Shown piece by piece: positions 2,385 to 59,365 of a stretch of 64,000 nucleotides of DNA. The DNA lies in contig OZ024741.1 of the NCBI GenBank assembly GCA_964016885.1, positions 67,828,001-67,892,000 on the forward strand, given 5' to 3'. Below the pieces are notes generated by a model, which was given only the letters and a program-made list of their open reading frames with translations, was not told the origin of the DNA and did not search any database. Position 1 is the first letter of the stretch. The number at the start of each line of letters is the position of its first letter. The translations under genes and the position numbers were made by a program. This DNA is from Eledone cirrhosa. Its lineage: Eukaryota.

Positions 2385-2537
2385 CCTTTACGATCTGAGT
2401 TCAAATCCCGCCGAGGTTAACTTTGCCTTTCATCTTTACGGGGTCGTTAAAATAAAGTACCAGTAATGTACTGGGGTCGAGTTAACCGACTTTCTCTCAA
2501 ATTGTTGGCTTTGTGCCTCAATCAGAAACCATTATTA
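2385..2537 (+). mobile_element. SINE copy (5' truncated, long variant)
   Basis: GAGTTCAAATCCCGCCGAGGTTAACTTTGCCTTTCATC...GGCTTTGTGCCTCAATCAGAAACCATTATT. Confidence 0.85.
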
Positions 2538-2619
2538 TCAACAAGACAATCAGCATAACTCTCTATGTGAGAAGGTAGGGTAAGGAAGGTAGGTTAACAT
2601 ATCGTTAAATTGATTAAAG

Positions 2620-3320
2620 TGAGATGTGGTGGACTGAGCTAAGGTGAGGTAGACTGAGGTAAGATGTGGTGGACTGAGGTAAGGTGAGGTGGACTGAGGT
2701 AAGGTGAGGTGGACTGAGGTAAGGTGAGGTGGACTGAGATAAGGTGAGGTGGACTGAGCTAAGGTGAGGTGGACTGAGGTAAGGTGAAGTGGACTGAGGT
2801 AAGGTGTGGTGGACTGAGCTAAGGTGAGGTGGACTGAGGTAAGATGTGGTGGACTGAGATAAGGTGAGGTGGACCGAGGTAAGGTGAAGTGGACTGAGGT
2901 AAGGTGAGGTGGCCTGAGGTATGGTGAGGTGGACTGAGGTTAGGTGAGGTGGGTTGAGGTAGGATGAGGTGGACTGAGGTAAGGTGAGGTGGACTGACGT
3001 AAGGTGAGGTGGGTGAGGTAAGGTGATGTGGACTGAGGTAAGGTGAGGTGGACTGACGTAAGGTGGGTGAGATAAGGTGAAGTGGACTGACGTAAGGTGA
3101 GGTGAACTGAGGTAAGGTGAGGTGGACTGAGTTAAGTTGAGGTGGACTGAGGTAAAGTGAGGTGGACTGAGGTAAGGTGAGGTGGACTGAGGTAAGGTGA
3201 GTGGGGTTGAGGTAGGGTGAGGTGGACTGAGGTAAAGTTAGGTGGACTGAGGTAGGGTGAGGTGGACTGATGTAAGGTGAGGTGGGTTGAGGTAGGGTGA
3301 GGTGGACTGAGGTAAAGTAA
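2620..3320. repeat. 20-bp minisatellite GAGGTAAGGTGAGGTGGACT, about 35 units
   Basis: Tandem units directly visible, built from related 5-mers. Confidence 0.95.
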
Positions 3321-4397
3321 GAGGAGGTGGATAGAATACTTTGCAGTATTCATTTCGGCTCTCTTCCCTCTAAGTTCAAATCTCGTCTTGGTGAATTAGG
3401 CCTTTCACCCTTTCGCGGTCGATAACAGAAGTACCAGTCTATTACTGGGATCTATTCTTCCTCTATGTCTCTTTCTCACTTCTTATCTGTCACTCTCCCT
3501 CTCTTTCTCTCTCTCTCTCTATCTATCTATCTACCTCCGCCCCTCTCCCTCTCTCTCCCACTCAGAGAGAAATCGATTGTTCAGTCTTAGGAAGAAGATA
3601 GGCTGCGCCAGATTTTAAAAATGCCCAAGAAACATCGTATGTCCCTCGGCGCTCCTACAGCTCCATAAGGAGTTATAGGTAAAAGATGATGAATATAAAG
3701 GAAGTGAAGCTGCGTCTAGCGGTCATACGTCCTCTTATAATTAGCCGTGATATCTCCTCTAAACTTTACTTTGCACTGTATAATGTGTTTCGTTATAGCG
3801 CGTAAGGTAGTGCTGAATATAATTGGTTCTTATATTGGCACAAAGCCAGCAATTTTGATGGAATGGACAAATCGTGTATATCGACCCCAGTATTTGAGTA
3901 TATCGGCCTCGAAAGGATGAAAAACTAAGTTAACCCTGGCCTTGGCGTAATCTGAACTCAGAACGTATAAGAACCGTCGCGAAATGCCTAACTGATTTCT
4001 AATTTTGGCAGAAGACTAGCAATTTAGGGTAACGGAAAAATCAAATATATCGACCCAGGCACTTCAAGTTTTCGACATAGGGATTTGAAGTCAACGTTAA
4101 AAGCCGGAACAAATACCACAAAATATTTGTTCGACCCTCTACTGAATCTGCCAAACCACCGCACTTTGTAATACTGAACGTAATATGGTATAAAAAAGAT
4201 AAAACACTCACTCCTTACATGCTAGTTAAATTGTGGTGGTTAGTTGCAGAGACATATTTCTTTTATTACCACTGTCATCACACTACCACTACATCTACCA
4301 CAACGATCATCATTACTTTTATTGAATGTTTCTAGTAACATCCTTAAAAACAACAGCAACAGGATCTTTAATCGTGTATGTGTGTGAATGTATGTGA

Positions 4398-7432: not shown

Positions 7433-8482
7433 ATATATATATATATCTGTCTGGAGTTTCACGTGTGTACTTATAGGATCATCAGACAGACAGTGTCCTC
7501 TGAATTTACTGGTGAAACTGCAGGTTAACAAGGTTAACTCTATTTCAGTATTTAGTACTCATTTGCTCAGCCATGAAAATAACACATATATATATGGTAC
7601 GGTTCCGTAACTCCTGATAGAGTTGTAGGGGTGCCGTATTGACATATGGCGTTTCTTGGCCATTTTAGGTCTGAGTACAGCAGATTTCTTCCAGAGAAAG
7701 ATAGAAACATTTATGAAAGATTGACATTTGATGCCTATGAAATGTACACAGCTGGTATAATATGATAAAATAAACTGATGTTGAATATGTGGTACCGTCT
7801 CTTCCTTTTCTTAATATTGACACTCACCTGATACAATATACGTAATAAGTTATGGCACTCATAACATGGAGTGCTTCTGCCTGATACACCACGATTGGCC
7901 TGAATTGCCCAACACTGTTTATCGTAGTCAATATATATAAATATTATAGGTGATTCATTGATTTACTGGTGATGGTATTATTATGAGCATTCTATGTAAA
8001 GACAGAATGTATGTATTCAGGAAAAGTGTTGAAGTTTCGTTTACATGTTTTTATTGTTTATTGAACTGTTCCATGTATCACAGATATTTGGCTCAAATTT
8101 ACCTATGGATACTATAGACCCGAGTCCAGCATCGATCAGCTTGTGAGACTTAATGATTCAACTCTGTTTTTGTTGAATCACCAAAAATCGATGCAGGAGT
8201 TCAGTCCCTAGCATGTATAGGGGACCATGAGCCAAACATCTAAGAAACGTATGAAATAGATCGATAATTAATAAAAACATATACACGAAACCTCAACGTA
8301 CGTGTCTGTATATATCATTCTCTCTCTGTCTCTCTCTCTCTCTCCCTCTCTTTCCCTCTCTCTATCTCTCTCTCTATCTCTCTCTCTCTCTCTTGCTCTC
8401 TCGCTCGCTCTCTCTCTTTATATATATATATATATATTAATTCAAAATATTAACAAAAATAGACATTCGTGTGATCAAGTAT

Positions 8483-8547
8483 ATTTTATTATACATATTT
8501 CAGAGGTACTGAGCTATCTTCAACAGTACGTCCTCATCAGATAAAAT
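8483..8547 (-). ncRNA. Type I hammerhead ribozyme (family B, inverted copy)
   Basis: Reverse complement of 8618-8682 with G at position 10.1. Confidence 0.75.
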
Positions 8548-8617
8548 AAGATGATGCATGACTACCATGACTGGATCTTATCCATCTACTAAGTCAGGGT
8601 ATGTCATGCATCATCTT

Positions 8618-8682
8618 ATTTTATCTGATGAAGACGTACTGTTGAAGATAGCTCAGTACCTCTGAAATATGTATAATAAAAT
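8618..8682 (+). ncRNA. Type I hammerhead ribozyme (family B)
   Basis: ATTTTAT-CTGATGA-AGACGTACTG..CAGTACCTCT-GAAA-TATGTA-TA|ATAAAAT; stem I 7 bp, near-palindromic minimal stem III. Confidence 0.75.
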
Positions 8683-8821
8683 ATACTTGATCACATGAAT
8701 GTCTATTTTTGTTAATATTTTGAATTAATATTAATAACTCCGGAAAACCATTTCAGTTGAGTGCTTCCAATCTATTGTAAAACTCATTCTTTGATTTATT
8801 CATTGAACCTTGTTTAACCTT

Positions 8822-36051: not shown

Positions 36052-36193
36052 CACAAATATGGTAAAGGTATCCAAGCGTAAGAGCTCTCAGTCCATAGGA
36101 CGAGTTGAGTATCTATATATATAAACGAGTAAATCAGACAAAGTTGGAATTCCTTTTATTAATATAATCTGCTATACAAAATCATACACACCC

Positions 36194-36231
<38 letters not shown>

Positions 36232-37224: not shown

Positions 37225-37392
37225 GTAATAATAATAAATTTGAAGACTAAAATCCAAAGAGGGCTCGATAAGGATAAATATATATCAAATACATAAGAAC
37301 CGTAGAGCAAATAATTATTAAAATAACAGATTAAAGTTTAAGCAAAGAATCGGGGTCTTTAACATTTTTCTCTCTCTCTCTATATATATATA

Positions 37393-37615
37393 TAGGAACG
37401 AGTAGGACCCCGACGGCTGAGCTCAAGCCGTTTCGACGGCTAATTCTGGACGCTTAGTGTAGTAGAGTGGGTAATAGGAACGAGTAGGACCCCGACGACT
37501 GAGCCCAAGCCGTTACGACGGCTAATTCTGGACGCCCTAATTCTCTACTACCCTAAGTATTGAGTACTTTAGTGCGTTATGGTCCACCTGGTTCCTTACC
37601 ACATTTCCTTCGTTA
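37393..37615. mobile_element. Scrambled copy of the family-F hammerhead element (two minus-strand half ribozymes + plus-strand tail)
   Basis: Shares GGACCCCGACGGCTGAGCTCAAGCCGTTTCGACGGCTA and the AAGTATTGAGTACTTT...CCTTCGTTAT tail with 52305-52537 and 55705-56067. Confidence 0.8.
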
Positions 37616-37713
37616 TATATATATATATATATAAGTATACATAGACATGAATATACATTTGTTTATATGTTTATGCATGTGTATAGATATACATATATGT
37701 CTATGTGTGTGTG

Positions 37714-37782
<69 letters not shown>

Positions 37783-37896
37783 TAATAAAAGGAATTCCAA
37801 CTTTGTCTGATTTACTCGTTTTATTTACAATCCTTTAAAATTATAATGATATTATAATGAAATAGTATGGTAGAATATTAAATGTTAAGTGTTAAT

Positions 37897-37935
37897 TGAA
37901 CAAGTACTTTCATGCTTTCGCAATCTTCAGGTTCA
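37897..37935 (-). ncRNA. Minimal hammerhead ribozyme (family E) within element 37778-37975
   Basis: Reverse complement of 56782-56820. Confidence 0.8.
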
Positions 37936-38339
37936 TATTCTGTGGTGACAGTCAAGTTTGCAATTTTCAAATTGCATATGTGTGTGTGTGCGAGTGACGT
38001 CACAATAGATATTGTTTAATCCATAATAGTACATATGGTGCCAGTCATTCTGTACAAACTCTCGAAGCTTCTGTTATCCAACTGATTAATAATTAATTCA
38101 GTGAGAGTATTTCGTTTTTCATATAATTTTATATCCATTTATTTACTCGGTTTTCGAGGCTTGATTGTTGCTTCTATAAGTGCGAAGAATCGTTATGGAG
38201 TGGAGGTGTCTGAAGTGGAGGTCGATGATGGTGATGGTGGTGGTGGTGGTGGTGGTGATGGTGGTGGTGATGATGGTGATGATGATTACGACGAAAATAT
38301 TAATGTTCATCAAGATAATAACAGTGAATATCGAGTCTT

Positions 38340-42275: not shown

Positions 42276-43090
42276 TCAGGCCATTCTTGCTTCTCTCACC
42301 CATCTTTCAACAAAATGCTGGGAAGAGAGCACTTCCCTCTCTACTCTGATTTTCCTTTTCAAATGAAATTTGAAAAAGTCAATCAGAGCATCACCAAAGA
42401 GGTAAGTGCTCGTCTTCAGCCCTTTCAAACGTGTCCACCATACTATCTCTTTCGCCATGGCCACCAGACAGATAAAAACTGCCTGCCCTTCCCGGCTAAA
42501 GGAGGAGGGCGGGGCAATCCTCACGATGGACTCAGATGATAGCCGGATCCGTCCTAAACGCGACAGCAGGTGTTCGACATAAACCCACAAGTCAGCAATT
42601 TTCGGACACTGGACGAGTGCGTGCAGGACGGTTTCGTCGCCCTGCGCGCATCTCGGACATGCCCGGCTGACGGCACCTCCATGCCTGTAGAGTTTATCCC
42701 GAACTGGCAAGGCTCCTCGGTAGCACTGCCAGGCCAGAGATTTCTGGAAGTTGTCCATAGGCCCCGGCCCGAAAGTTCTTCCGAAGAGATTGGCTAGTTG
42801 ATTTTCGTCGACGCCTAGAGTTTCGCCAAGTACGTCGTCGCTCTTACCCTCCACTAATCCTCTATAGAACGCCGAGGTGGAGTTTCCACCGATCACATTG
42901 CCCGATTGGTCGAGGGCTGTGAGCGCCTGAAGACATTCCAGTCTCCAGGCGCTCCCTCTCGGTCTTCGCTTGACCCAGGACTGCAGCTCCGTCAAGGAAA
43001 CGAGCTGGGGAAATACGCGCCTAGCAAACGGCGACCACACCTGATCACCGTCGAGGAAGAGGTGGAGATGTCGTAGCCTGAGCGCGTTTC
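42276..43090 (-). pseudogene. ORF2 C-terminal part with zinc finger, separated by a single frameshift near 43089
   Basis: CPRCAQGDETVLHALVQCP; the paralogue reads LMMRRHALRLRHL continuously across this point. Confidence 0.88.
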
Positions 43091-45663
43091 CTGCGCATCA
43101 TCAGCCACGGCATGCCCAGCCCTCCACGTAGCGGGTGTTGACAACAGATGGACCGCCTGACCATCGGAGCACGTCCCTTCCACAAAAAGCGAAAGAACAA
43201 ACGCTCCAGTGCAGTCAGGCGAGGCTTAGGACAAGGTACGACGGTCAGGCGGTAGCAGATGACAGACGCGATGTACGCGTTAGCCACCTCCGCTCGACCT
43301 TTCAGGGATAGCTTCGTCTCCGCCCATTTCTGGGTGAGAGAAGCCACCCTGCTCGTCACCTCGTCCCAGTTTTTGTCCGTCTGGAGGTCCGGACCGAACC
43401 AGACCCCTAGCAATTTAACCGGTCCGTCCGTCCAGCGTCCGACGACGCTGTTGGACGGCATGGACCTGCCTCTCCAGGTGCCGAGCTGCAGGCCCACTGA
43501 CTTTTCCTGGTTGATCATTGCTCCTGTCACCGCTTCGTATTCTCTTAGTGTAGTGCCGATCGCCTCGATGTGTTTGGCGTTCGACACCACTACGGTGATA
43601 TCGTCCGCATATGCTGACACGGATCTTCCGCATCCTAGTTCGCGCGGGACTCCCCTCAACGTCTCCAGTTTGTGCAGTAATGGCTCGAGAGTCAATACGT
43701 ACAAGAGGGACGAGAGGGGACATCCTTGGCGGACCGAGCGCATGATGTTGAACGGTTCCGACAGGTGACCGTTCACTCTCACCACAGAGCAAATGTCGCT
43801 GTGCATGGCAGCGATCCAGCCTCTGAAGACGGGCCCAAAGCCAGCCGCCCTCAGGACTGCCGCTAGGTAACGATGGTCGACCCTATCGAAAGCTTTCGAC
43901 TGATCTAAATTGATCAAGGACCCACCCGTGCCAGGTTCCTTAGCTACCCTCTCTATGATGTATCGCATGAGGTGGAGGTTGTCGTGGATGGATCTGTCGG
44001 GAATGGCGCATGTCTGCGCCTCTCCCACCAGACCACCAACGACAAGCGCCAACCTCTTTGCTAGCACCTTGGCCAAAATCTTGAACTCTGTGTTTAGCAG
44101 AGCTATGGGCCGGAAATTTTCTATGTTATCCCCCTTGTTCGGATCCTTTCTCAGCAGTGCCACCGCTCCTCGGCTCACAGAACTGGGAATTCTCCCGTTC
44201 TGTTGCCAGTTGCAGTAGACGTCCGCCAAGAGGCCTCCGAACAAGTCTGGCATCTGTACGTAAAGTTCATAGGGCAGACCATCCAAACCAGGCGATTTAC
44301 CCCTTGTGCAGCCAGTCATTGCCTCCCTTACTTCAGCGGCTGTTATCGGCTTTTCGCAACACTTCGCCTCAGTGGCCGAGAGCCGCGGCAGTCCGTCGAG
44401 GTAGACACTAAAGTCCATCCCTCTACCCGGCCCACCGCTGCCCCCGAACAGCTGAGCGAAGTGTCGCTGAAAAGCTTCACACATTTGCCCGGGATCGAGT
44501 AGCATGCACTCGTCGTGGTCCACCAAAGACCGGATCGTGGCTTTGTTGCCACGACGCGCCTCCGCCACTCGGGCCCATTGAACGGATTTCGTCCCCTCGT
44601 GTCTGAGAGCACGCACCCTTGCTCTGACAACGCAGCCTTCGTCCTTTGCATTGAAGAATTGGTCAAGGGCCAATTTCGCCGCAAGCACGTCGGTCGCAAT
44701 GCCTTTGCTAAGCGCCTCGTCTAATTTTCTAACTAGTTCTCCCTCTGCTCTATTTTTCTCTATTGCTAAAGCCTTACTAAACCTAATCGATTCTATTCTA
44801 ATCGCTCTTTTCAGAGCAAACCAGCACTTGTTGTTGACGATGGCCCCCGTCAACGCCCGCTTAACTAGTTCGCTAATCCGGTCGCTGTAGGCCTTGCGCG
44901 CTGGTAAGGACGCGTTTAGCTTCCAGTAGCCGGGTCCTCGTCTATGAAGCCTATCTAAGTCAAGCACACAGATCACGAATTTGTGGTCCGTGTAGCTGAC
45001 TATCTTGAATTGTGGACAGCCTATGCTAGACCTATCTATTTCCCTACAAAATACTCTATCTAGATATGATCTGGATGACCCTATGCGATTTGTCCAAGTC
45101 CACATTGGCACATTCGGGAAACCCAATCGGTACCTGTCAGACAGTTCAAAACGCCTGAGCAGGTTGGTGAGGCTCTTGCACCCTCCACCCCTATCCGCTA
45201 ATCCCACACAGTCCCAGCGTGCATCTAAGATCCCGTTCCAGTCGCCCACTAACACTAAAGAGCGGGACGTTCCAAGAAAGGTCTCCAGACGCCGGAAGAA
45301 ATCAGGCCGCCCTGCTCCTGTCGGGGCATAGACGGCCACTAGCCTGAAAGCTTGCCCGTCTCCACTGGTCACGTCCAGCACCACCAGCTTACCCTCTGGG
45401 TCCAGGAAGATGGCCCGTATGGCGAGATCCAAACCTCTCCGAAAAAGCACAGCAACTCCTCCACCCGATCCAGGACGGCTGGGAGATGCGTACACATCGT
45501 AGCCGCCGAAGATCGGTGCGAAGGCCCGTGCTTCGGAGATTCTGGTCTCGCTGATGGCCACTACATCTATGTTTAGTGACCTGAGGTCGTTGAGCAGGTG
45601 ACCCTGCTTCCATGACGACCCCAAGCCACGCGCATTTATGCTGCCTATTCTGAGTGAGGTCAT
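43045..45663 (-). CDS. LINE ORF2: APE endonuclease + reverse transcriptase (Tx1/L1 clade)
   Basis: SINARGL, SETR, VYAP, GDWN, YLDRV, TDHK (APE); GPGYWKLN, KSPGLDGLP, FRPIALLN, DQSKAFDRV, VRQGCPLS, YADD (RT). Confidence 0.95.
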   Translation of the reverse strand: MTSLRIGSINARGLGSSWKQGHLLNDLRSLNIDVVAISETRISEARAFAPIFGGYDVYASPSRPGSGGGVAVLFRRGLDLAIRAIFLDPEGKLVVLDVTSGDGQAFRLVAVYAPTGAGRPDFFRRLETFLGTSRSLVLVGDWNGILDARWDCVGLADRGGGCKSLTNLLRRFELSDRYRLGFPNVPMWTWTNRIGSSRSYLDRVFCREIDRSSIGCPQFKIVSYTDHKFVICVLDLDRLHRRGPGYWKLNASLPARKAYSDRISELVKRALTGAIVNNKCWFALKRAIRIESIRFSKALAIEKNRAEGELVRKLDEALSKGIATDVLAAKLALDQFFNAKDEGCVVRARVRALRHEGTKSVQWARVAEARRGNKATIRSLVDHDECMLLDPGQMCEAFQRHFAQLFGGSGGPGRGMDFSVYLDGLPRLSATEAKCCEKPITAAEVREAMTGCTRGKSPGLDGLPYELYVQMPDLFGGLLADVYCNWQQNGRIPSSVSRGAVALLRKDPNKGDNIENFRPIALLNTEFKILAKVLAKRLALVVGGLVGEAQTCAIPDRSIHDNLHLMRYIIERVAKEPGTGGSLINLDQSKAFDRVDHRYLAAVLRAAGFGPVFRGWIAAMHSDICSVVRVNGHLSEPFNIMRSVRQGCPLSSLLYVLTLEPLLHKLETLRGVPRELGCGRSVSAYADDITVVVSNAKHIEAIGTTLREYEAVTGAMINQEKSVGLQLGTWRGRSMPSNSVVGRWTDGPVKLLGVWFGPDLQTDKNWDEVTSRVASLTQKWAETKLSLKGRAEVANAYIASVICYRLTVVPCPKPRLTALERLFFRFLWKGRAPMVRRSICCQHPLRGGLGMPWLMMRRKRAQATTSPPLPRR

Positions 45664-46026
45664 GTTTAAAATAGAGTGGAAAAGATGGGAAAGACCACTT
45701 ACGTACTTTTCGTAGAGGAGGGATGGTTTTTACATCCCTTTTCACTTGATCGTCTGGTGAAGAGACCGTTGAAGCGTCCCTTCCGCTGGTCGTCGGCTCT
45801 TCTAAGAGAATGTCTGAATATACTCTTCGATTGATGGTTCCTCCTAGGTCCCTGAAATCACCAACTGCGTTGGGGAATTTCGTTTTAATATTTGTGTATT
45901 GTTTCTGTGCTATTTTTAGCAGTCTTATGTTAGTTGGCGTTTTGATTGGTGCTGGTATTATGTAGTCCTGTTGTGAAATGTCTGTGTGTTCAATTATGTA
46001 AGTCATTAGTTTCTTGTTGTGTGTAT

Positions 46027-47772
46027 TTATTGCCGTGCATTTGTTTTTCTGGGGGTGGGGTGTGGTTCTGCTATTTTCTTGTGTGTTTGCGATGTTGGTG
46101 CTTGTGGTGGTGGTGTTGAAGGTGTTGTTGGCGGTGGGGTTGTCGCCGGTGGTGATGGTGGTGCTAGTGTGGGTGGTGATGGTGTTGGTGGTGTTGCTGC
46201 TGTGGGTCTCTTTGCAGTAGACTTTACCCTTTTCTTATTTCTTTCCTCCCTTTTCAAAGGCGACGATGCGCTGCTTCTGCGTTTGTGCCTTCTTACGACC
46301 TTTTGCCATCCCTCTCCCACCTCACACTCCATGTCTGATTCTGTGAGGTCGGGGAGGGGTACCAGCTCCACTCTTTCACTTGTTGTTGTTGGTGATGTTT
46401 GCACTGGAGTCTCTGTTGCAGCTGCATTTGGTATTGCTGTTGTTGTTGTTAATATTTCCACTGCTGCTGCTGTTTTTGATTTCCGTGGAGTGGGTATGGG
46501 TGCCACGGACCTATCGTTCCTGGTTGCCGCTTGTCCTGTTGCTGGTAGCCGTGGAGCCGGATTCGGAAGGAGGGGGGTTTTCTCCTTCCTCAGGGTCTTC
46601 TCGTTGCAGAAGGCCCTGAGGTGAGTCTTCGATCCACAGCGAAAGCATTTCGGGCGTTTGCCCTCAACACTTATGGGCAGTTGAGTGCCGTTATCGAAGT
46701 CTATCACATCCGGGATAGCTTCGATGCACTCCTGGTTGGTTTGGATTAGCATCTCAATGGAGGTGCCTACCCAATCTTCTCTTACTTTTTTCTGTACTTG
46801 CAGTACAGTTGTTTTGTCCTCGATTCCGACGAGGACAGACGCGGCCAGCCAAGAAGGGGCCATTCCGGGGGGGACGTGGGTCAGTTTGACCCTCACAATT
46901 TTTTGCCCGCAGTAGGAGGGCACCAACACCATTTCCTCGCTCCTTAGGGTCACTACTGATTGGGCCTTTGCCTCCTGGGGTGTGGCAAAAAGTACGTCTA
47001 CGGTGGCATATTTTTTGCCTCGGGTGATGTGCGTTTTCCGCTGCCACACAGACCCCAAGGCTTTTTGTATTTGGGCCTCTGTGGCTCTTTCCACCCTACG
47101 TGATTTTGTACTTACTGTACGGTACGTGACCGTACAGTGCTCTTGGGTTTCGAAAAATTTTTCCGCTGCCTTGCAGATTGCTCGGTGTCCATTCTTTGTC
47201 ACCATCTTCTTCGCTTCCTCTAATTCCTCATTTGTTATGAGGATTGTTTCCAAGTTTTTCGCAATACCTGCAAATGAGATTGGTTTTTCTCTGCTGCTGC
47301 TGTTGTTGTTGTCGTCAGAGCTGCTGGTACTTTTGTTGTTGCTGCAGGTACTACGACTACTGCCTCCGCCGCTGTTGCTGTGGTTGTTGTTGGTGTTGCT
47401 GCTGCTAATGCTGTTGTTGTTTATGCTGCTGGTGATGCTGTTGCGGCTGCTACTGTTGTTTTCATTGTCACTGTTGCTGTTGTTATTACGGCTGCTACTG
47501 CTATTATTCCTGACGTCAGACGAATGAACTGGGTTTTCGTATTTCCCGCACACCTGTTTCGTCGCTGTCGTCGTCGTCGTGGAGAAACCTTGCACGCTTT
47601 GCACGAGACTTTTCTTTTCTTTCGTCACTTGCGAAAGAGAAGGGAGGGAGAGAGATACATCTCTGCTGTAGTGATGATTGAGGAAGAAGAAGACGGAATG
47701 AGTGGGAGTGACGTATGAAATTTCTTTTTCGTAGCCATGTTGTTTTTTGTTTAAAATGAATATTGGGTACAA
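46027..47772 (-). CDS. LINE ORF1 gag-like protein with zinc knuckle (start uncertain)
   Basis: CFRCGSKTHLRAFC knuckle preceded by an RRM-like region (VKLTHVPPG); the track start is TTG and the first in-frame ATG is at about 47203. Confidence 0.8.
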   Translation of the reverse strand: MYPIFILNKKQHGYEKEISYVTPTHSVFFFLNHHYSRDVSLSLPSLSQVTKEKKSLVQSVQGFSTTTTTATKQVCGKYENPVHSSDVRNNSSSSRNNNSNSDNENNSSSRNSITSSINNNSISSSNTNNNHSNSGGGSSRSTCSNNKSTSSSDDNNNSSSREKPISFAGIAKNLETILITNEELEEAKKMVTKNGHRAICKAAEKFFETQEHCTVTYRTVSTKSRRVERATEAQIQKALGSVWQRKTHITRGKKYATVDVLFATPQEAKAQSVVTLRSEEMVLVPSYCGQKIVRVKLTHVPPGMAPSWLAASVLVGIEDKTTVLQVQKKVREDWVGTSIEMLIQTNQECIEAIPDVIDFDNGTQLPISVEGKRPKCFRCGSKTHLRAFCNEKTLRKEKTPLLPNPAPRLPATGQAATRNDRSVAPIPTPRKSKTAAAVEILTTTTAIPNAAATETPVQTSPTTTSERVELVPLPDLTESDMECEVGEGWQKVVRRHKRRSSASSPLKREERNKKRVKSTAKRPTAATPPTPSPPTLAPPSPPATTPPPTTPSTPPPQAPTSQTHKKIAEPHPTPRKTNARQ

Positions 47773-47973
47773 AACCCCAATAACTGGTTATTTCACCCCG
47801 AAGTGCCAAATAACGGACAGAAAGACCCCTCTCACGAGGAGGAGGGTGTCTTTATCAACAATTTGGTTCAAGTTTTAAACAATTTACAATTGTTTTAACG
47901 GTTAAAAATTACTATACCTTACAGAGCCGAGCCTCCGTCAACCATGGCATTCAATAATAATAATAATAATAAT

Positions 47974-50900
47974 GATTTCATTTATTAGCCACAAGGGCCG
48001 ACATGTAGGGGACAATACAAAGACAGGGACAGTGGGGGTTTACAATAAGGTCGAGTAAAAGTGCACAATGGCAAGACTAATTTAACAATGAAAATATAAA
48101 AATATAAAATAAACTATGCATAAATATGACAAAATAAATTCCCCGATAGGGGGTGGACGACCCTGGGGTGATTCGGGTACGCCACCAATCATGAACCACC
48201 CTGCGCTTCTAGGGCAGCCAGGGAGAGCATCCCTCTCCTCAAGTTAGCCAACCTATAGGCGCATGGTCAGAGTAGGCCCATTCACACGAGCCATTCTCGC
48301 CACATTCACGCACCTTTTAGCAAATGTACTGGGGGGCAGCACTTCTCTCTCCACCCTCACCTTCCTTTCCAGGTGAAACTTGAAGAAGTTGATGAAGGAT
48401 TGGCCGAAGAGAAAAGTGTCTGTCTTTAGTCCTTTCAGCCTGGTCCACCATATAATCTCTTTCGCAACTGCCATCAGACAGAGGAATATTTCCTGCTCTT
48501 CCTAACCTAAGGAAGGCGGTGGATCGATCTTCACTATGGACTCGGTCGATAGCCGGATTCGTTCCACACGCGACAGTAGCTGTTCGACATAACACCACAA
48601 GTCAGTAATGCACGGACATTGGACAAGTGCGTGCAGAACGGTTTCGTCGTTCTGTGCGCATCTTGGGCAGGTCCGTCTGACAGCACTTCCGTGCCTGTAG
48701 AGTTCATCCCGAACCCGCAGTGCCCCCCGGTAGCACTGCCAAGCGAGGGATTTCTGGAAATTGTCCATCGTCCCCGGCTCAAAATTCCTCCGGTACAGAC
48801 TGGTCAGTTCGACTTCGTCGAGGCCCAAATCTTCTCCAAGTGCGTCATCGCACTTGCCCACCACTAATCCTCTATAGAACTCGAGAGTGGAAGTTCCACT
48901 GATCGCATTGCCCGCTTGGTAGAGGGCAGTGGGTGCCTGGCAACATTCCAGGTCCCAGTCACCCAGTCTCGGTCTCTTCTTGACCCAGGACAGCAGCTCA
49001 GTCAAAGAAATGAGCTGCGGAAAGGCCCATCTGATAAACAGCGACCACACCTGTTCACCGTTGAGGCAGAATATCTGGAGATGTCGCAGCCTCAACGCAT
49101 GTCTGCGCATCATTAGCCACGGCATGCCTAGCCCTCCACGAGAATTTGAAGAGGAGCCGTTCCAACTTGACGAGGCGCGGACGGGAACAAGGCACGACGG
49201 TCAGGCGGTAGTAGATGACGGACGCGATGAACGCATTCGCCACCTCCGCGCGACCTTTCAGTGATAGCTTCCTCCCAGCCCATTTTTGGGTGAGACTGGC
49301 TACTCTGCTCGTTACCTCGTCCCAATTCTTTTCCACCTGGAGGTCTGGTCCGAACCAAACCCCGAGCAACTTTACCGGTCCGTCCGTCCAGCGCCCCACG
49401 ACGCTGTTGGACGGCATGGGCTTGCCTCTCCAGGTTCCGAGTGCAAGCCCACCGACTTTTCCGGGTTAAGTTTGGCTCCTGTCAACCTTTCATATTCCTT
49501 CAATAAGGTGCCGACCACCTCGATTTCTGAGGTGTTCGACACCATCACGGTGATGTCGTCCGCATTAGCCGACACCGCCTTTCTACGTCCCGGTTCGAGC
49601 GGGATGCCCTGCAACAGCTCCATCTTTCGCAATAAAGGCTCGAGAGTCAATACGTACAGAAGGGAAGAGAGAGGGCACCCTTGACGGACCGATCGGGAGA
49701 GCCGAAATGGTTCCGACAGGTGGCCATTAACCTTGACCACTGAGCGTGTGCCGCTGTGCATTGCAACAATCCAGCTTCTAAAGACAGGGCCGAAGCCAGC
49801 TGCTTTGAGGACAAACTCCAAATACCGATGGTCGACCCTATCGAATGCTTTGGATTGATCTAAATTGATCAGTGCCCCACCGAAGCCAGGTTTACACCCT
49901 ACCCTCTCTATGATGTATCGCATGAGGTGGAGATTGTCGTGTATGCACTTGGCTGGGATTGCGCAAGTTTGCGCCTCCCCAACCAAATCCTCGACGACAA
50001 GCGCCAATCTCTTTGCTAACACCTTGGCCAAAATCTTAAACTCTGTGTTGAGCAGAGTTATGGGCCTGAAGTTGTCTAATGTATCCCTCTTGTTCTCGTC
50101 TTTCCTTATCAGCGTCACCACTCCCCTGCTCACAGAACTGGGAATACTCCCATTCTGCTGCCAGTTGCAGTAGAGTGCTTCGAGGAGTTCAGAGAACAAG
50201 TCTGGCATATTTACGTAAAGCTCGTAGGGCAGGCCATCCAAACCGGGTGACTTGCGCCTCATGCAGCCGACAAGGGCGTCCTGCATTTTGGCTGAAGTAA
50301 TCGGCCTTTCGCGGCGCTCAGCGTCGACCGTCAAGATGCGCGGCAAGCCGTCAAGGTAGGGACGACTGAAATCCGCTATTCTCTCTGACTCACCACTTTC
50401 CCTGAACAACCGAGCAAAGTGCTGGCGAAAGGCCTCACACATCCGCTTGGAATCGCTTATCTCGTGTCCGTCTCGGTCCGCCAAAGACCGAATTGTGGTT
50501 TTATTACCACGCTGCGCCTCCGCCACGCGGGCCCATCAAACAGCTTTAGTTCCCTCGTTTCTCAGCGCACGCGCCTTAGCTCTGACAATGCAACCTTCGT
50601 GTTTGGCATTGAAGAAATGGTCTAATGCCATTCTCGCCGCTAGCACGTCAGTTGCGATGCCACTACAAATAGCCTCGTCTAACTTATCTACCAGCTCCCC
50701 CTCCTTTCTATTTTTCTCTAACGGTAGTTCTTTGCTGAACTCTATCGAAGTTACTTTAATCTCTCTTTTGAGAGCCACCCACCATCTATTGTTGATGATC
50801 CCCCTGTCAACTTTTGCTTAACTAAATTGTTGACTCGGTCCCTGTAAGCCTTACGTGCCGGAAATGACATGTTCAGCTTCCAGTAACCCGGTCCTAACCT

Positions 50901-51422
50901 ACGCGTTTTATTTAGGTCCACCGTACAGATCACAAATTTGTGATCTGAATAGACGACCGTTTTAAAAAGTGCACAGCCCACACTATTTCTATATATTTTC
51001 CTAATGAATATTCTGTCTATATACGATCTAGATAACCCCATTCGGTTAGCCCAGGTCCACACTGGCACATTGGGGAAATCTAGTCGATACCTGTCAGACA
51101 GTTGGAACTGGCTTTGTAGGTGCTTGAGGCTTTTGCACCCCCCGCTCCTATCGGCTACTCCCACACAATCCCAGCGTGCGTCTAAGATGCCATTCCAGTC
51201 CCCCTCTAACAGTAAAGGGCGAGACGTACCCATATAGGTCTCCAGGCGCCTAAAGAAGTCCGGTCGTCCGGCCCCTGTAGGGGCGTAGACGGCCAACAGT
51301 CTAAAAGCACCACCTTCGCTACTGCTCACATCCAAGACCACCAACTTACCGTCCGGGTCCCGGAAGATCGACCTTACCTCGAGATCCAGTCCTTTCCTAA
51401 ACAGCACTGCCACCCCACCCCC
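47974..51422 (-). mobile_element. 5'-truncated, disrupted Tx1/L1 element (second subfamily), ORF2 only, in (AAT)n
   Basis: ORF pieces 50751-51420, 50536-50778, 49372-50526, 49055-49417, 48502-49125 and 48253-48474 are colinear with 42276-45663; several stops/frameshifts; YADD reads NADD; (AAT)n at both ends. Confidence 0.93.
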
Positions 51423-51430
51423 TAATAATA

Positions 51431-51507
<77 letters not shown>

Positions 51508-51566
51508 AAGAAGAAGAAGAAGAAGAAGAAGAAGAAGAAGAAGAAGAAGAAGAAGAAGAAGAAGAA
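51423..51566. repeat. (AAT)n followed by (AAG)n
   Basis: Directly visible. Confidence 0.95.
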
Positions 51567-51939
51567 TACCAACAACAAACAACAATAACAACAATAACAA
51601 CATGTACAAGTATAAAAGCCAGAACAAAAACAACTACAACTGAGCTAGAATTGAAGTTTCCAAACTTTCAGAAGTAGCAACAAGAAATGGAAAACTTCCA
51701 AAGCATCATTTCCATTAATCAAAACAATTGGTTTGATTTTTAAAAAATAGAATCGGATAATACACGCGAATAATTAAATTAGTTAATTAGCGCCTAATTA
51801 TTACCTCTCTTTTGACGATATTTCAAATCCTGCTTTCAATTTTCTTCAACTATTCCATTGATTAAACACAATTTCAATATCACAGTTTGCGTCGAAGAAT
51901 ATAATTAGATCGCTTTCAATAGTATAAATATATATATGT

Positions 51940-52255: not shown

Positions 52256-52304
<49 letters not shown>

Positions 52305-52306
<2 letters not shown>

Positions 52307-52537
52307 CGAAGGAGATGTGGTAAGGAACCAGATGGACCATAATGCACCAAAGTACTCAATACTTAGGGTAGTAGAGTGGGTAATAGGAATAAGTAGGACC
52401 CCGACGGCTGAGCTCAAGCCGTTCCGACGGCTAATTCTGGACTAAATGAAAATGTTTAGCCTGGTAAATGAATGGCCGAACTTCTCAGGGGGTAATTCCA
52501 TATATGGTAAAAGTGATTGTCACAAGGATTTGTCATG
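52305..52537 (-). mobile_element. Family-F hammerhead element monomer in (TA)n; ribozyme at 52398-52493 mutated (C3-A8 mismatch, GGAA)
   Basis: Colinear with 55850-56067 in reverse; (TA)n on both sides. Confidence 0.85.
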
Positions 52538-52568
<31 letters not shown>

Positions 52569-54960: not shown

Positions 54961-55625
54961 CCAAGAATATATATATATAATAATTCAATGTATCCATTTG
55001 TTCGTTTAAAAGTCGACAAGAGGTAATTTGAATGGTATTTGATTGTTATTTCCAACATGTCTTGCAACGGCGTGATGTCTTCCTTGTTGGCTGTTGATTG
55101 TGAAACTGGTGTAGTTTGGTGGAGTGATGGAGGATTTACGCGAAACTCACTCTATTAATTGTCATAGTAAAACAGCATTGATGCTTGTGTTTGTTGTTGT
55201 TGTTATTGTTATTGTTTACCACCTAGGTCATCTGTCAATTAACAAACTTATATAATCAAATCCGGTTAAGCGGTGACAAGCCCATTTTGATGTTTTCATT
55301 ATGTATTCGCCAGCAATAATTTATTATTATTCCCAAGCAACCACCAGGGAATATGTTTTCAATCCTTATATATTTGTTAGTTATCTTTATTTGGATAAGT
55401 TTTCCGTTTCTTTTAAAGATATATTGTAGTTGATAATATCTGATATAATAATTTCCATTAATCCCCTCCTTTGTCTGAATATGAAATATCCCAGATTATG
55501 CTTAATGTTATGTTTTCCTTTGAGAATTAGAAACGTTTTGTGGTGTACGTTTCTACCACTTCAAATCTGTCAGTATAGCGGTATGTCGTAGTACTGACAA
55601 AAAGGTATGGGTAATATATATATAC

Positions 55626-55704
<79 letters not shown>

Positions 55705-55708
<4 letters not shown>

Positions 55709-56063
55709 AACCAGTAAGACCCCGACAGCTGAGCTCAAGCCGTTTCGACGGCTAATTCTGGACTAAATGAAAATTTATCCTGGTATTTAAATAGCCGATC
55801 TTCTCAAGGGGTAATTCCATATATGGTCAAAGTGATTGTCAAAAATTTTTCACAATCACTTTGACCATATATGGAATTACCCCTTGAGAAGATCGGCTAT
55901 TTAAATACCAGGATAAATTTTCATTTAGTCCAGAATTAGCCGTCGAAACGGCTTGAGCTCAGCTGTCGGGGTCTTACTGGTTCCTATTACCCACTCTACT
56001 ACCTCAAGTATTGAGTACTTTGGTGCGTTATGGTCCACCTGGTTCCTTACCACATTTCCTTCG

Positions 56064-56067
<4 letters not shown>
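55705..56067 (+). mobile_element. Family-F hammerhead element as a 282-bp fold-back (55705-55986) plus unique tail, in (TA)n
   Basis: Palindrome centred at 55845/55846 (AAAAA|TTTTT). Confidence 0.9.
55879..55972 (+). ncRNA. Type I hammerhead ribozyme, U3-A8 core variant (family F); mirror copy at 55719-55812 on the minus strand
   Basis: ACCCC-TTGAGAA-GA(T)CGGCTA...TAGCCGTC-GAAA-CGGC TTGAGCTCA GCTG-TC|GGGGT. Confidence 0.8.
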
Positions 56068-56157
<90 letters not shown>

Positions 56158-56223
56158 ATGAATGTATGTATGCATGTATGTGTAAGAGAGAGAGAGAGAT
56201 TTAAAAGAGTCTAATTGTTGTTT

Positions 56224-56254
<31 letters not shown>

Positions 56255-56339
56255 ATATATATATATATATATATATGTCCCAAGGCTCTGATACCATCAA
56301 CACTATAAACACAGAGCTGACATATCTAAGAACTGACTA

Positions 56340-56395
56340 ACTGCCTGATGAGGTCATAGCCATTCAATGGCTATCGGCGAAATATAAATAGCAGT
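56340..56395 (+). ncRNA. Type I hammerhead ribozyme (family G) in short element 56277-56441 between (TA)n tracts
   Basis: ACTGC-CTGATGA-GGTC ATAGCCAT TCA ATGGCTAT CGGC-GAAA-TATAAA-TA|GCAGT, then AATAAA. Confidence 0.75.
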
Positions 56396-56436
56396 AAATA
56401 AAGGATTATGAATTCATGCAATTGACTTATGTTTCG

Positions 56437-56496
<60 letters not shown>

Positions 56497-56530
56497 TACA
56501 CGGGTGTGTATGATTGTGTATAGAAGATTA

Positions 56531-56938
56531 TATTAATAAAAGGAATTCCAACTTTGTCTGATTTACTCGTTTTATTTACAATCCTTTACAATTTATAATG
56601 GTATTAGAATGAAATAGTATGGTAGAATATTAATTATTAAGTGTTAATTGAACAAGTACTTTCATGCTTTCGCAATCTTCAGGTTCACATTCTGTGGTGA
56701 CAGTCAAGTTTGCAATTTTCAACAAAATTTACCCATCTCATTACAGTTGAAAATTGCAAACTTGACTGTCACCACAGAATATGAACCTGAAGATTGCGAA
56801 AGCATGAAAGTACTTGTTCAATTAACACTTAACATTTAATATTCTACCATACTATTTCATTCTAATACCATTATAAATTGTAAAGGATTGTAAATAAAAC
56901 GAGTAAATCAGACAAAGTTTGAATCCCTTTTATTAATA
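56531..56938. repeat. 193-bp inverted repeat with 22-nt spacer (family-E fold-back dimer) between (TA)n tracts
   Basis: 56531-56723 versus 56746-56938, a few mismatches. Confidence 0.92.
56782..56820 (+). ncRNA. Minimal hammerhead ribozyme (family E); mirror copy at 56649-56687 on the minus strand
   Basis: TGAAC-CTGAAGA-T TGC GAAA GCA T-GAAA-GTAC-TT|GTTCA; GNRA loop II; palindromic AGTACT stem III. Confidence 0.85.
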
Positions 56939-57020
56939 TATATATATATATATATACATATATATAGGGGGGATGTTTATGTATATGTATATGTATGGAT
57001 ATATATATCATATACATACA

Positions 57021-57081
<61 letters not shown>

Positions 57082-59365
57082 TTATACATATATATATATA
57101 TAGAGAGAGAGACAGAGATAAAATAGAGAGAGAGAGATAGAGAAAGAGAGATGTGCATGCATGTGTGTGTGGGAGGGAATGTATTCCGTTTTGTCATGCA
57201 AACAGAAACAATGCAGTTTATCCTTTTCCTCCCGACCTTCACATATTCATGTTTTAACTTATGTTCCTTGATAGTTTCTAGTGAGACGGTTTAGTTTTTA
57301 ACTCTTAATCAAATATCAACATGCTTATTAGTCGTGCTAGTTAAAGCAGCATTTTTAACCACGTTATAATTCAAGGTGTCGATAATTTGTGTACTCAACT
57401 GATATTCAGTATCATGAATATACAAAACTATTTACATTTATAAACAATGAAAGATTTAGAGAATAAGAATGGGTACACATTATTTTACGATCGTTTCGAG
57501 TTTGTGGAAATTTCACGCTATGGAGCTTACAAAAGGGTTTTCTCTCTGGCCTCTTCAGGAACAAAAGACTCCTTGAGAACCTTTTTTTCAAAAAGCCAAA
57601 GGGATTGCTAAACAATGGATTAATATTCATCCATTCTTTTATATATATATTTGTGTGTGTGTGTGTGTGTGTATGTGTGTGTGTGTCTGCGTGTGTGTGA
57701 GAGAGAAAGACAGAGAGAGAGAGTGTATGTGTGTGCACGCACTCATGTGTATGTGTATGAATCCCAATCATTAACTTCTCTTCATTCATAAAAATCTATT
57801 TACATATACCGCTTGATGACGAGTAACAAACAGTGGAGTCTTATATATCAACGTGAGTTCAAATTTATATGAAGGACATTTATAGAGAAGACATGAACAT
57901 TATATATTCATACCTTTTAGTCTCTGTATGTCAATATATTGATAAGTGCACTTTTCGGCTGCAGATATAAGATCGAGATCGACCGAACCAACGAAACGTT
58001 TTTGGATTCAACATTAAATCCAACTTCTGTTTTCTTACACTGATAGTATCCTTGAAATATACATTACCGTCATACTGTTTCCTTCGTTTCATGAATCTAT
58101 GAAATTCGTTACTCGCTGTCACAACTAAGAAATCAATATATTTGATAAAAGCTATAAAAATAAGAAACAAGCATGCTGTAAACTAAACATTATGCATTTC
58201 CATTGCAAGTTTCAGAAACCTGTACAATAAAGGAACCGATTGAACCCACTCATTCGAAAGAAATATACACCAATATTATTGATAGCTTTACAATAATCTG
58301 AGGACAAAATCAGTAATAGCTTTCATAACGAGATCTTCTGTGGGTAACCATTAATAATGAAATCAAAGGCAATGTATCCCATTTATCGTTCAACAAAATG
58401 TACAGGTATACCATTAACAATTATATTAGTATAGGCTTCAATTAACATGTAGTCAGAAGCCGAACAACTGGGAAAGCCTATCCAAGACGATAACATATTA
58501 AACATGCTATATTTCACGAACGGGAAGGCTCGTAGTCTAACCGGTAGGATATTAGATCATAAAATCGTGGGTTTCAATCCTAGACCGGGAGGTGCGTTGA
58601 GTTCTGACATGGGTTGCAACGTCAGATAGTATCACAAGTGGAAGCGAATGTATTGATTTATGTCTGTATAGATTTATGTAAGTCTATATGCTTTTTAATA
58701 TAATATATGTGTATTTGTGTTTCAAATTCGTATATTTCAGCAATAGATTATGCAAATGTATATGGTCTATTGCCTGTGATTATATATGTACATGCATATG
58801 TATATGTGTAATATGGGATGTTTTACCTGGCTGTCAGCGTTTGTGTGCATGTGTCTCTGTGTGTGTGTGTGTAAATTTTCCCAATAGGTATAAGGTGTAC
58901 AGTGTCATTTTCAAGATGTCGTTAATTCGTTCACTAAATCAATATTTGAAAATGAGAATTATATGTTACCCAGCATAGCATATCATTGCATAAGAATGAC
59001 ATAAATCTTTCATTGGTTCATGGGCTAGTAGTTTGGTTTGTAAACACCTAGTTCTTTGTTCAATCTTCCGGAATCACATATCCAGTACGTGACTTCTACT
59101 ATAACAAGAAAACCTGAAGTAGTTCAAAGCATTTTGAGTGGAATTTCTGAGTAGTTATTGCTGATTATGTCGGGGTCATATCTGACTCACCAGTACCGTA
59201 AACGACATCCTTTCAGACATGACTAATTCTTCCTTTGTTTCAGCGGGAGTTTGCTAGACGGCGCTAGCCGTCACCTTTTCAATATCCATACCCGGAAGGC
59301 TTTCCAAATGTTTATTTACTAAACATACCGTACGAAATTCGCACGCACGCACGCACACGCACAAC

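Follow-up and report, generated by a model that had tools for sequence, protein, structure and literature searches.

The locus at 55705, in the 64-kb stretch of DNA analysed here (the window), raises the question of whether a hammerhead-like sequence with an unusual core, embedded in a long palindrome, is a true ribozyme motif, and of which kind of element it would be part. A sequence-only reading had described it as a natural hammerhead in which U3-A8 takes the place of the C3-G8 pair, built as a 282-bp palindrome. The reading favoured by the analysis, with a probability of roughly 0.8, is that of the inactive end of an endonuclease-bearing Penelope-like element (PLE) in an animal genome, truncated on its 5' side and comprising a pseudo-LTR and a tail, the motif being the U3-A8 type I hammerhead of that element.

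Features of the 55705 locus and of its relatives in the window (coordinates are those of the window)
Feature	Position	Strand	Remarks
Left (TA)n microsatellite, presumed target site	55614..55704	.	sequence
Left arm: inverted, 5'-truncated copy, no tail	55705..55845	-	3' end at the family's short end (55986/55987 in sense coordinates)
Hammerhead mirror copy	55719..55812	-	U3 at 55807, C17 at 55724
A5T5 centre of the head-to-head junction, self-complementary	55841..55850	.	flanked by mismatched pair 55840/55851
Sense arm: 5'-truncated pLTR-like element end, hammerhead and tail	55846..56064	+	family alignment, reads
Outer helix I, 55873-55878 with 55979-55984	55873..55984	+	predicted; closes a 6-nt bulge on the 3' strand
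Type I hammerhead motif	55879..55972	+	94 nt; descriptor match, predicted fold
Helix I	55879-55883/55968-55972	+	5 bp
Core U3-U4-G5-A6-G7-A8-A9	55884-55890	+	U3 = 55884, A8 = 55889
Helix II	55891-55899/55937-55944	+	2 bp, bulged U, 6 bp; C11.1 = 55944
Loop II, 37 nt, imperfect inner hairpin at 55911-55931	55900..55936	+	5' side and apex variable between copies
G12-A13-A14-A15.1	55945-55948	+	A15.1 = 55948
Helix III	55948-55953/55961-55966	+	5-6 bp, GC-rich
GUC	55965-55967	+	U16.1 = 55966, C17 = 55967; predicted cut after 55967
One-sided tail, about 77 nt, non-mirrored	55988..56064	+	ATG at 56030
Right (TA)n microsatellite	56065..56093	.	sequence
Second family copy with tail	52303..52538	-	91% identical; C3 (52488)-A8, G13 (52424); (TA)n on both sides
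Third locus	37392..37616	.	(TA)n on both sides
Third locus, two inverted 3' halves	37392-37451, 37459-37533	-	one has U13
Third locus, sense tail	37543-37616	+	no 5' core strand at this locus

It was confirmed that the sequence at 55705 is a genuine type I hammerhead-shaped motif with a U3-A8 core. The type I core is complete in both arms (U4 G5 A6, A9, G12 A13 A14 A15.1, U16.1 H17). The 3-8 pair is of the Watson-Crick type, with U3-A8 replacing C3-G8 at 55884/55889 in the sense arm and mirrored in the other, as had been proposed from the letters. G10.1-C11.1 and a long helix II are present, and G10.1 directly follows A9, with no extra nucleotide between A9 and 10.1. When the sense strand alone was folded in three context lengths, helices I, II and III, with helix I open, formed the minimum-free-energy structure, in which the three stems and the GUC of the sequence-only reading were all recovered. 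Pair probabilities in the sense strand were 0.70-0.98 for helix I, 0.61-0.76 for helix II and 0.47-0.76 for helix III. The additional hairpin that had been suspected in loop II was also predicted; it has a bulged G, and its pair probabilities are 0.92-0.95 for the three pairs that close it and 0.36-0.71 for the five above them. In loop III the self-complementary octamer was found as described, preceded on its 5' side by one extra U; for a 19-nt piece a loop III dimer is predicted (-26.3 vs 2 x -4.9 kcal/mol). Two features had gone unnoticed, the continuation of helix I and the one-sided tail. The first four pairs of this outer helix I are predicted at 0.87-1.00, and only its outer 4 pairs are conserved across the three window copies having both strands. 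The predicted 5-6-bp helix III suggests that a monomer fold should be possible, and cleavage of the isolated motif in vitro is judged somewhat more likely than not.

A descriptor set post hoc to the motif's own helix lengths gave two matches in the window, corresponding to both 55705 arms, and none in 60 block-wise dinucleotide shuffles. The folding energy is ordinary (z = -0.15), since 77 of 200 shuffles fold equally well. The stretch 55705-55986 is its own reverse complement except for one pair (55840/55851, both C), and could be extended by one further pair. The palindrome of 282 bp thus stands as it had been described, but the ribozyme motif is a 94-nt sequence plus its mirror copy and not the palindrome. 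The palindrome corresponds to the arrangement of a copy next to its inverse that is known from Penelope-like insertions, and it forms no part of the ribozyme. For the whole locus the predicted folding energy is -271 or -277 kcal/mol, depending on the direction, and in a plus-strand RNA of the full palindrome all hammerhead pairs had a probability of 0.00. In RNA that runs through the palindrome in either direction, the antisense arm is made first and a hairpin of about 140 bp then follows. Because such read-through RNA would zip into the long hairpin, the 55705 genomic copy is probably inert unless transcription starts within the locus, and its activity in vivo is, on these folding models, very unlikely.

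The fold at -271 kcal/mol could also be taken as a sign that the palindrome is the primary object, as a fold-back DNA transposon or a small-RNA or editing hairpin, or that it was produced by the assembly, the hammerhead shape being incidental in either case. Sub-threshold matches of Rfam microRNA models on the palindrome centre would fit this explanation, as would the absence of the exact junction 55845/55846 among the joints listed from the four sequencing runs analysed. However, the shuffles gave no descriptor match, the other copies of the family are non-palindromic or inverted at other points, and the two arms differ at one pair and carry a tail on one arm only. An origin of this kind is therefore exceedingly improbable, and an assembly artefact in particular is unlikely.

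The sequence-only reading had placed the family at three loci (37393, 52305 and 55705). All three were found, but the intact hammerhead motif is present at one of them only, 55705. The core of the 52305 copy is broken at two places, with C3-A8 and with G13 replacing A13, and its predicted fold lacks helix II. The conserved type I core is retained neither in this copy nor in the 37459 piece. No two-sided change was observed at any of the 28 helix pairs among six closely related window rows, of which at most three cover helices I and II.

In order to evaluate whether U3-A8 is a property of the family, sequencing reads were considered. The runs listed numbered 22, of which 16 contained all or part of the stretch, from 12 studies; no RNA run containing it was listed among the 22. 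Four were analysed (X1, X2, X6 and X20). X20 is a RAD-seq run with many molecule ends inside the element and was included by species label only, while X1 may be the source sample of the window itself and was not counted as independent. Contig depth is not equal to copy number. Changes were reported from a level of 3%, and the variant rows described below are the 40 of 64 that were listed; rows of small share were not used.

U3-A8 is the majority family state in the four runs analysed, and not the C3-A8 that the sequence-only reading had named as the outcome speaking against it. It is thus not a mutation of one copy. No A>G change appeared in the change-type tallies of any of the four runs, which places G8 under the 3% reporting level or outside the contigs. 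In X20, 60 of 354 reads have C at position 3, and these begin at 19 places. In X2, one contig (depth 22 of 56) combines C3 with several linked changes, including one at 55863 common to the 52305 copy. C3 was not seen in runs X1 and X6. C3·A8 is accordingly a real minority sublineage, observed both in the window (52488) and in reads and contigs that come from two coded organisms. As the C3·A8 form has been amplified too, amplification does not strictly depend on the core pair. A C7-A8 combination occurs in one loose-end consensus of X2 and X6, and CpG decay, acting on a C7-G8 step, is a possible source of G8A. Reading the core in another register, as C3-U4-G5-A6 without N7 and then G8-A9 with one A added, accommodates the C3 copies only and was not adopted.

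Among the 40 of 64 variant rows listed, no substitution was found at positions 4-6, 8, 9, 12-15.1, 16.1 and 17 or in helix I; the variable places are positions 7 and 10.2, loop II and the bulge of helix I. In X20, position 7 shows G>T in 39 of 362 reads, and the pair at position 10.2 is broken in about half of the reads (A>C, 163/366). Helix III at 55705 contains a minority G-U, as 82% of the X20 reads have C at 55964, and read variants also occur at 55979 and 55980 in outer helix I. These X20 shares are biased because the RAD-seq cuts fall inside the element. No compensatory helix change was apparent among the same 40 of 64 rows.

These data bear on the possibility that the element has the same PLE origin and that its hammerhead is a dead relic: G8A would have killed it, cleavage would have been dispensable, and C3U would be a later neutral change that only looks compensatory. 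The multi-copy C3·A8 sublineage (reads and the 52305 copy), the lack of covariation in the helices and the ordinary folding energy are in line with such a history. So are published results on the anole Poseidon element PAc (PMC11167929), where hammerhead mutants left insertion in vitro unaffected and no RNA-seq reads ending at the PLE cut site were reported. That the anole hammerhead was dispensable for insertion in vitro is also in keeping with the spread seen here for C3·A8 copies. On the other hand, the variant rows listed contain no substitution at the core positions named above or in helix I, though they do contain changes at positions 7 and 10.2, in the bulge and in loop II. Moreover, PMC3088659 states, citing another paper, that ribozymes with U3-A8 show activity in vitro. 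A relic is considered rather unlikely.

The assignment to a PLE is based on the way in which the copies end and join. All six family ends in the window adjoin (TA)n, a repeat covering 4.5% of the sequence. Two preferred 3' ends were found. The short one, at 55987 and followed by (TA)n, is supported by 3,444 X20 reads and 3 X2 contigs, and the long one, at about 56054-56064 and also followed by (TA)n, by 1,251 + 1,430 X20 reads. Opposite-strand joints occur in nine rows of X20, and one fold-back contig was found in X1. Coverage of the 3' half far exceeds that of the 5' core (in X2, about 50 on the core vs 550-1,400). The two 3' ends, the opposite-strand joints and the low depth of the 5' core fit 5' truncation, and the family shows 5' truncation together with an adjacent inverted head-to-head copy. 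The tail stands at one end only.

The ATG of the tail opens a 12-codon frame that runs to the element end, and the same peptide is encoded in all three window copies. After this ATG, both differences of the 52305 copy (2/2) and three of the five listed read variants are synonymous, compared with 22 of 90 possible changes. This is suggestive, and the frame is possibly the start of a parent ORF. A crude six-frame motif scan of the window, where all copies are truncated, gave no PLE RT or GIY-YIG ORF, and the only RT found was of the LINE type. Exact-pattern scans of metagenome contigs and viral contigs yielded 0 loci of the family, and its DNA motifs and tail peptide are absent from the supplement of PMC8557442. 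As no PLE ORF was found, we infer PLE membership from the architecture, according to which the element is very probably Penelope-like.

Similar architectures have been published. For Naiad, for Hydra and for other clades, PMC8557442 describes (TA)n targets, a one-ended tail and a 5'-truncated copy in inverted orientation. Head-to-head inversions, junction palindromes and tails with the first ORF codons are described for Adineta Penelope in PMC3846280. In anole PAc the tail is connected with the existence of two sites, both downstream of the hammerhead, at which the RT starts (PMC11167929). The 55705 family shares with the PLE pLTRs of these three sources a truncated plus inverted copy, a junction palindrome, a one-sided tail, an AT-rich or (TA)n target and a hammerhead upstream of the two ends. 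It differs in that its tail is about 77 nt long, above the published 30-40, and from Naiads in that these are described as lacking canonical hammerheads.

A second origin to be weighed is a non-autonomous non-LTR retrozyme or SINE-like element, whose motif would be a canonical-style type I hammerhead with an extended helix I contacting loop II, and which would produce small circular RNAs. Animal non-LTR retrozymes also carry a type I hammerhead in a non-coding repeat related to PLE pLTRs (PMC7229834; bioRxiv 10.64898/2026.07.22.740005), and this 2026 preprint argues that retrozymes derive from PLE pLTRs. In addition, no ORF was seen in the family, and the bulged extended helix I and the stable helix III resemble canonical type I. 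Retrozymes, however, consist of units of about 300 bp repeated head to tail (PMC7229834), whereas the 55705 family is dispersed, truncated and head-to-head within the window: none of its three loci is a head-to-tail tandem of complete hammerhead motifs, and the copies are 5'-truncated and tailed. A retrozyme is thus a highly improbable source of the motif.

With respect to the core, the sequence-only reading implied novelty, which does not hold. Natural C3-G8 to U3-A8 covariation was first reported in 2011 for several hammerheads, from other hosts and contexts than the present one (Perreault et al., PMC3088659), and a U3-A8 hammerhead descriptor has been in print since 2014. In the Cercyon PLEs of Schistosoma mansoni, about 1,300 U3-A8 matches were described (Cervera and De la Pena 2014, PMC4209133). 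The supplementary alignment of that paper includes two U3-A8 rows, and the paper also reports motifs paired on opposite strands at distances of 100-700 bp. As judged from PMC4209133, the motif at 55705 is like that of Cercyon in being type I with U3-A8, G10.1-C11.1, a long helix II, a short inner helix I and a self-complementary loop III, and in occurring mostly as truncated solo copies and opposite-strand pairs. It differs in its helix III (5-6 bp and GC-rich vs 1 bp), in its loop II (37 nt with an inner hairpin vs 4-9 nt), in having no extra nucleotide after A9, in the continuation of helix I past the bulge, and in being known here without a linked ORF. No helix III or loop II as large as these was found among the metazoan rows of the PMC4209133 alignment that were compared, a statement limited to those rows.

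The motif is not a metazoan minimal hammerhead (min-HHR) in the strict sense. It lacks the very short, dimer-only palindromic helix III of that class, its helix III being long. It also lacks the extra nucleotide after A9 that is typical of min-HHR and that is equally missing from two rows of the PMC4209133 alignment. A stable helix III which permits a monomer fold is a likeness to the fungal and protist PLE hammerheads of the same paper, of which the Serpula example was cleaved as a monomer. In contrast, those belong to endonuclease-lacking telomeric PLEs, whereas the element here is of the animal type, (TA)n-targeted and with U3-A8. The locus thus represents one more host family for known U3-A8 PLE hammerheads, both the core variant and the inverted layout having been published before. 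If the monomer cleavage held true, it would be a convenient natural test case, most animal PLE hammerheads being weak dimers. The presence of U3-A8 and C3·A8 sublineages side by side bears on whether cleavage matters for PLE retrotransposition.

The mechanism proposed for the element draws, in its first steps, on other PLEs. The RT and GIY-YIG protein of the element would nick AT-rich DNA, and reverse transcription would start from two preferred internal sites, at about 56064 and 55987. After an early stop of synthesis, the strands would be joined head-to-head at the short A5T5 palindrome. The RNA of the parent element would be cut after C17 (55967), by which tandem transcripts would be processed, the role proposed for PLE hammerheads in PMC4209133. 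Cleavage might proceed as a monomer via the 5-6-bp helix III and also as a dimer via the self-complementary loop III. The protein of the element may assist, and the anole PLE hammerhead was reported to need the protein of its element (PMC11167929). A more specific proposal would be that of an active, monomer-competent U3-A8 hammerhead in which a new contact between loop II and the helix I bulge offsets the weaker U-A pair, with C3·A8 as the intermediate of a C3-G8 to U3-A8 switch within one transposon family shared across related hosts. Taken as a whole, this is decidedly unlikely. If true, the C3·A8 sublineage would make it possible to test directly whether the spread of PLEs is affected by cleavage, and the peripheral design would be one that is not among the published animal PLE motifs compared.

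It had been stated that standard searches would miss this motif. Rfam gave no gathering match to a hammerhead in the window, and among 92 matches with E values up to 10 over 55600-57100 none was to a hammerhead family, in agreement with the statement. However, motifs with canonical cores at 8540, 8625 and 56345 were missed as well, so that U3-A8 by itself does not explain the miss; motifs of this type escape the Rfam models. The identity of the palindrome as a microRNA hairpin was rejected, as all matches to microRNA models were under their gathering scores. In the giant squid genome, 235 Rfam hammerheads were counted (PMC6962438), and a literature search on cephalopod hammerheads gave no paper on the subject among those listed.

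The window itself is AT-rich, with a GC content of 0.30-0.47 outside one LINE region, and full of microsatellites, dinucleotide runs accounting for 6% of it. The DNA is eukaryotic and most likely from an animal, possibly a cephalopod to judge by the style of the genome. Two other families in the window share the head-to-head layout of the 55705 family, one of them with canonical cores. The latter, a second PLE-like family, is represented by a palindrome of 291 bp at 8434-8724, with 91% arm identity, which lies between (TA)n runs and has a one-sided tail of about 100 nt, to about 8825. Its arms contain canonical CUGAUGA type I hammerhead-like motifs, at 8625 on the plus strand and at 8540 on the minus strand. 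A single-copy CUGAUGA hammerhead-like motif (C3 at 56345), with a long helix II and a weak helix III, was found between (TA)n runs at 56276-56445. The other head-to-head family comprises 56529-56940, 37758-37970 and 36123-36194. Its first member is a palindrome of 412 bp with 94% arm identity and a 22-nt spacer. A minimal-hammerhead-like core, which the descriptor did not score, is located at 56787; its helix II has a basal U·U, a feature also of the Hydra row in the PMC4209133 alignment.

Two tandem LINE copies, about 76% identical, occupy 42276-51578 on the minus strand and contain endonuclease, RT and zf-RVT domains. The first copy has an 872-aa ORF followed by a break before the zf-RVT part. 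The upstream 581-aa ORF gave no Pfam match, and its Atlas look-alikes include CCHC zinc-knuckle proteins. Atlas look-alikes of a window LINE protein were commonest in Mollusca, which is taken as a lead only. Finally, a minisatellite with a 20-nt period and about 28 listed copies in two blocks extends over 2515-3401.
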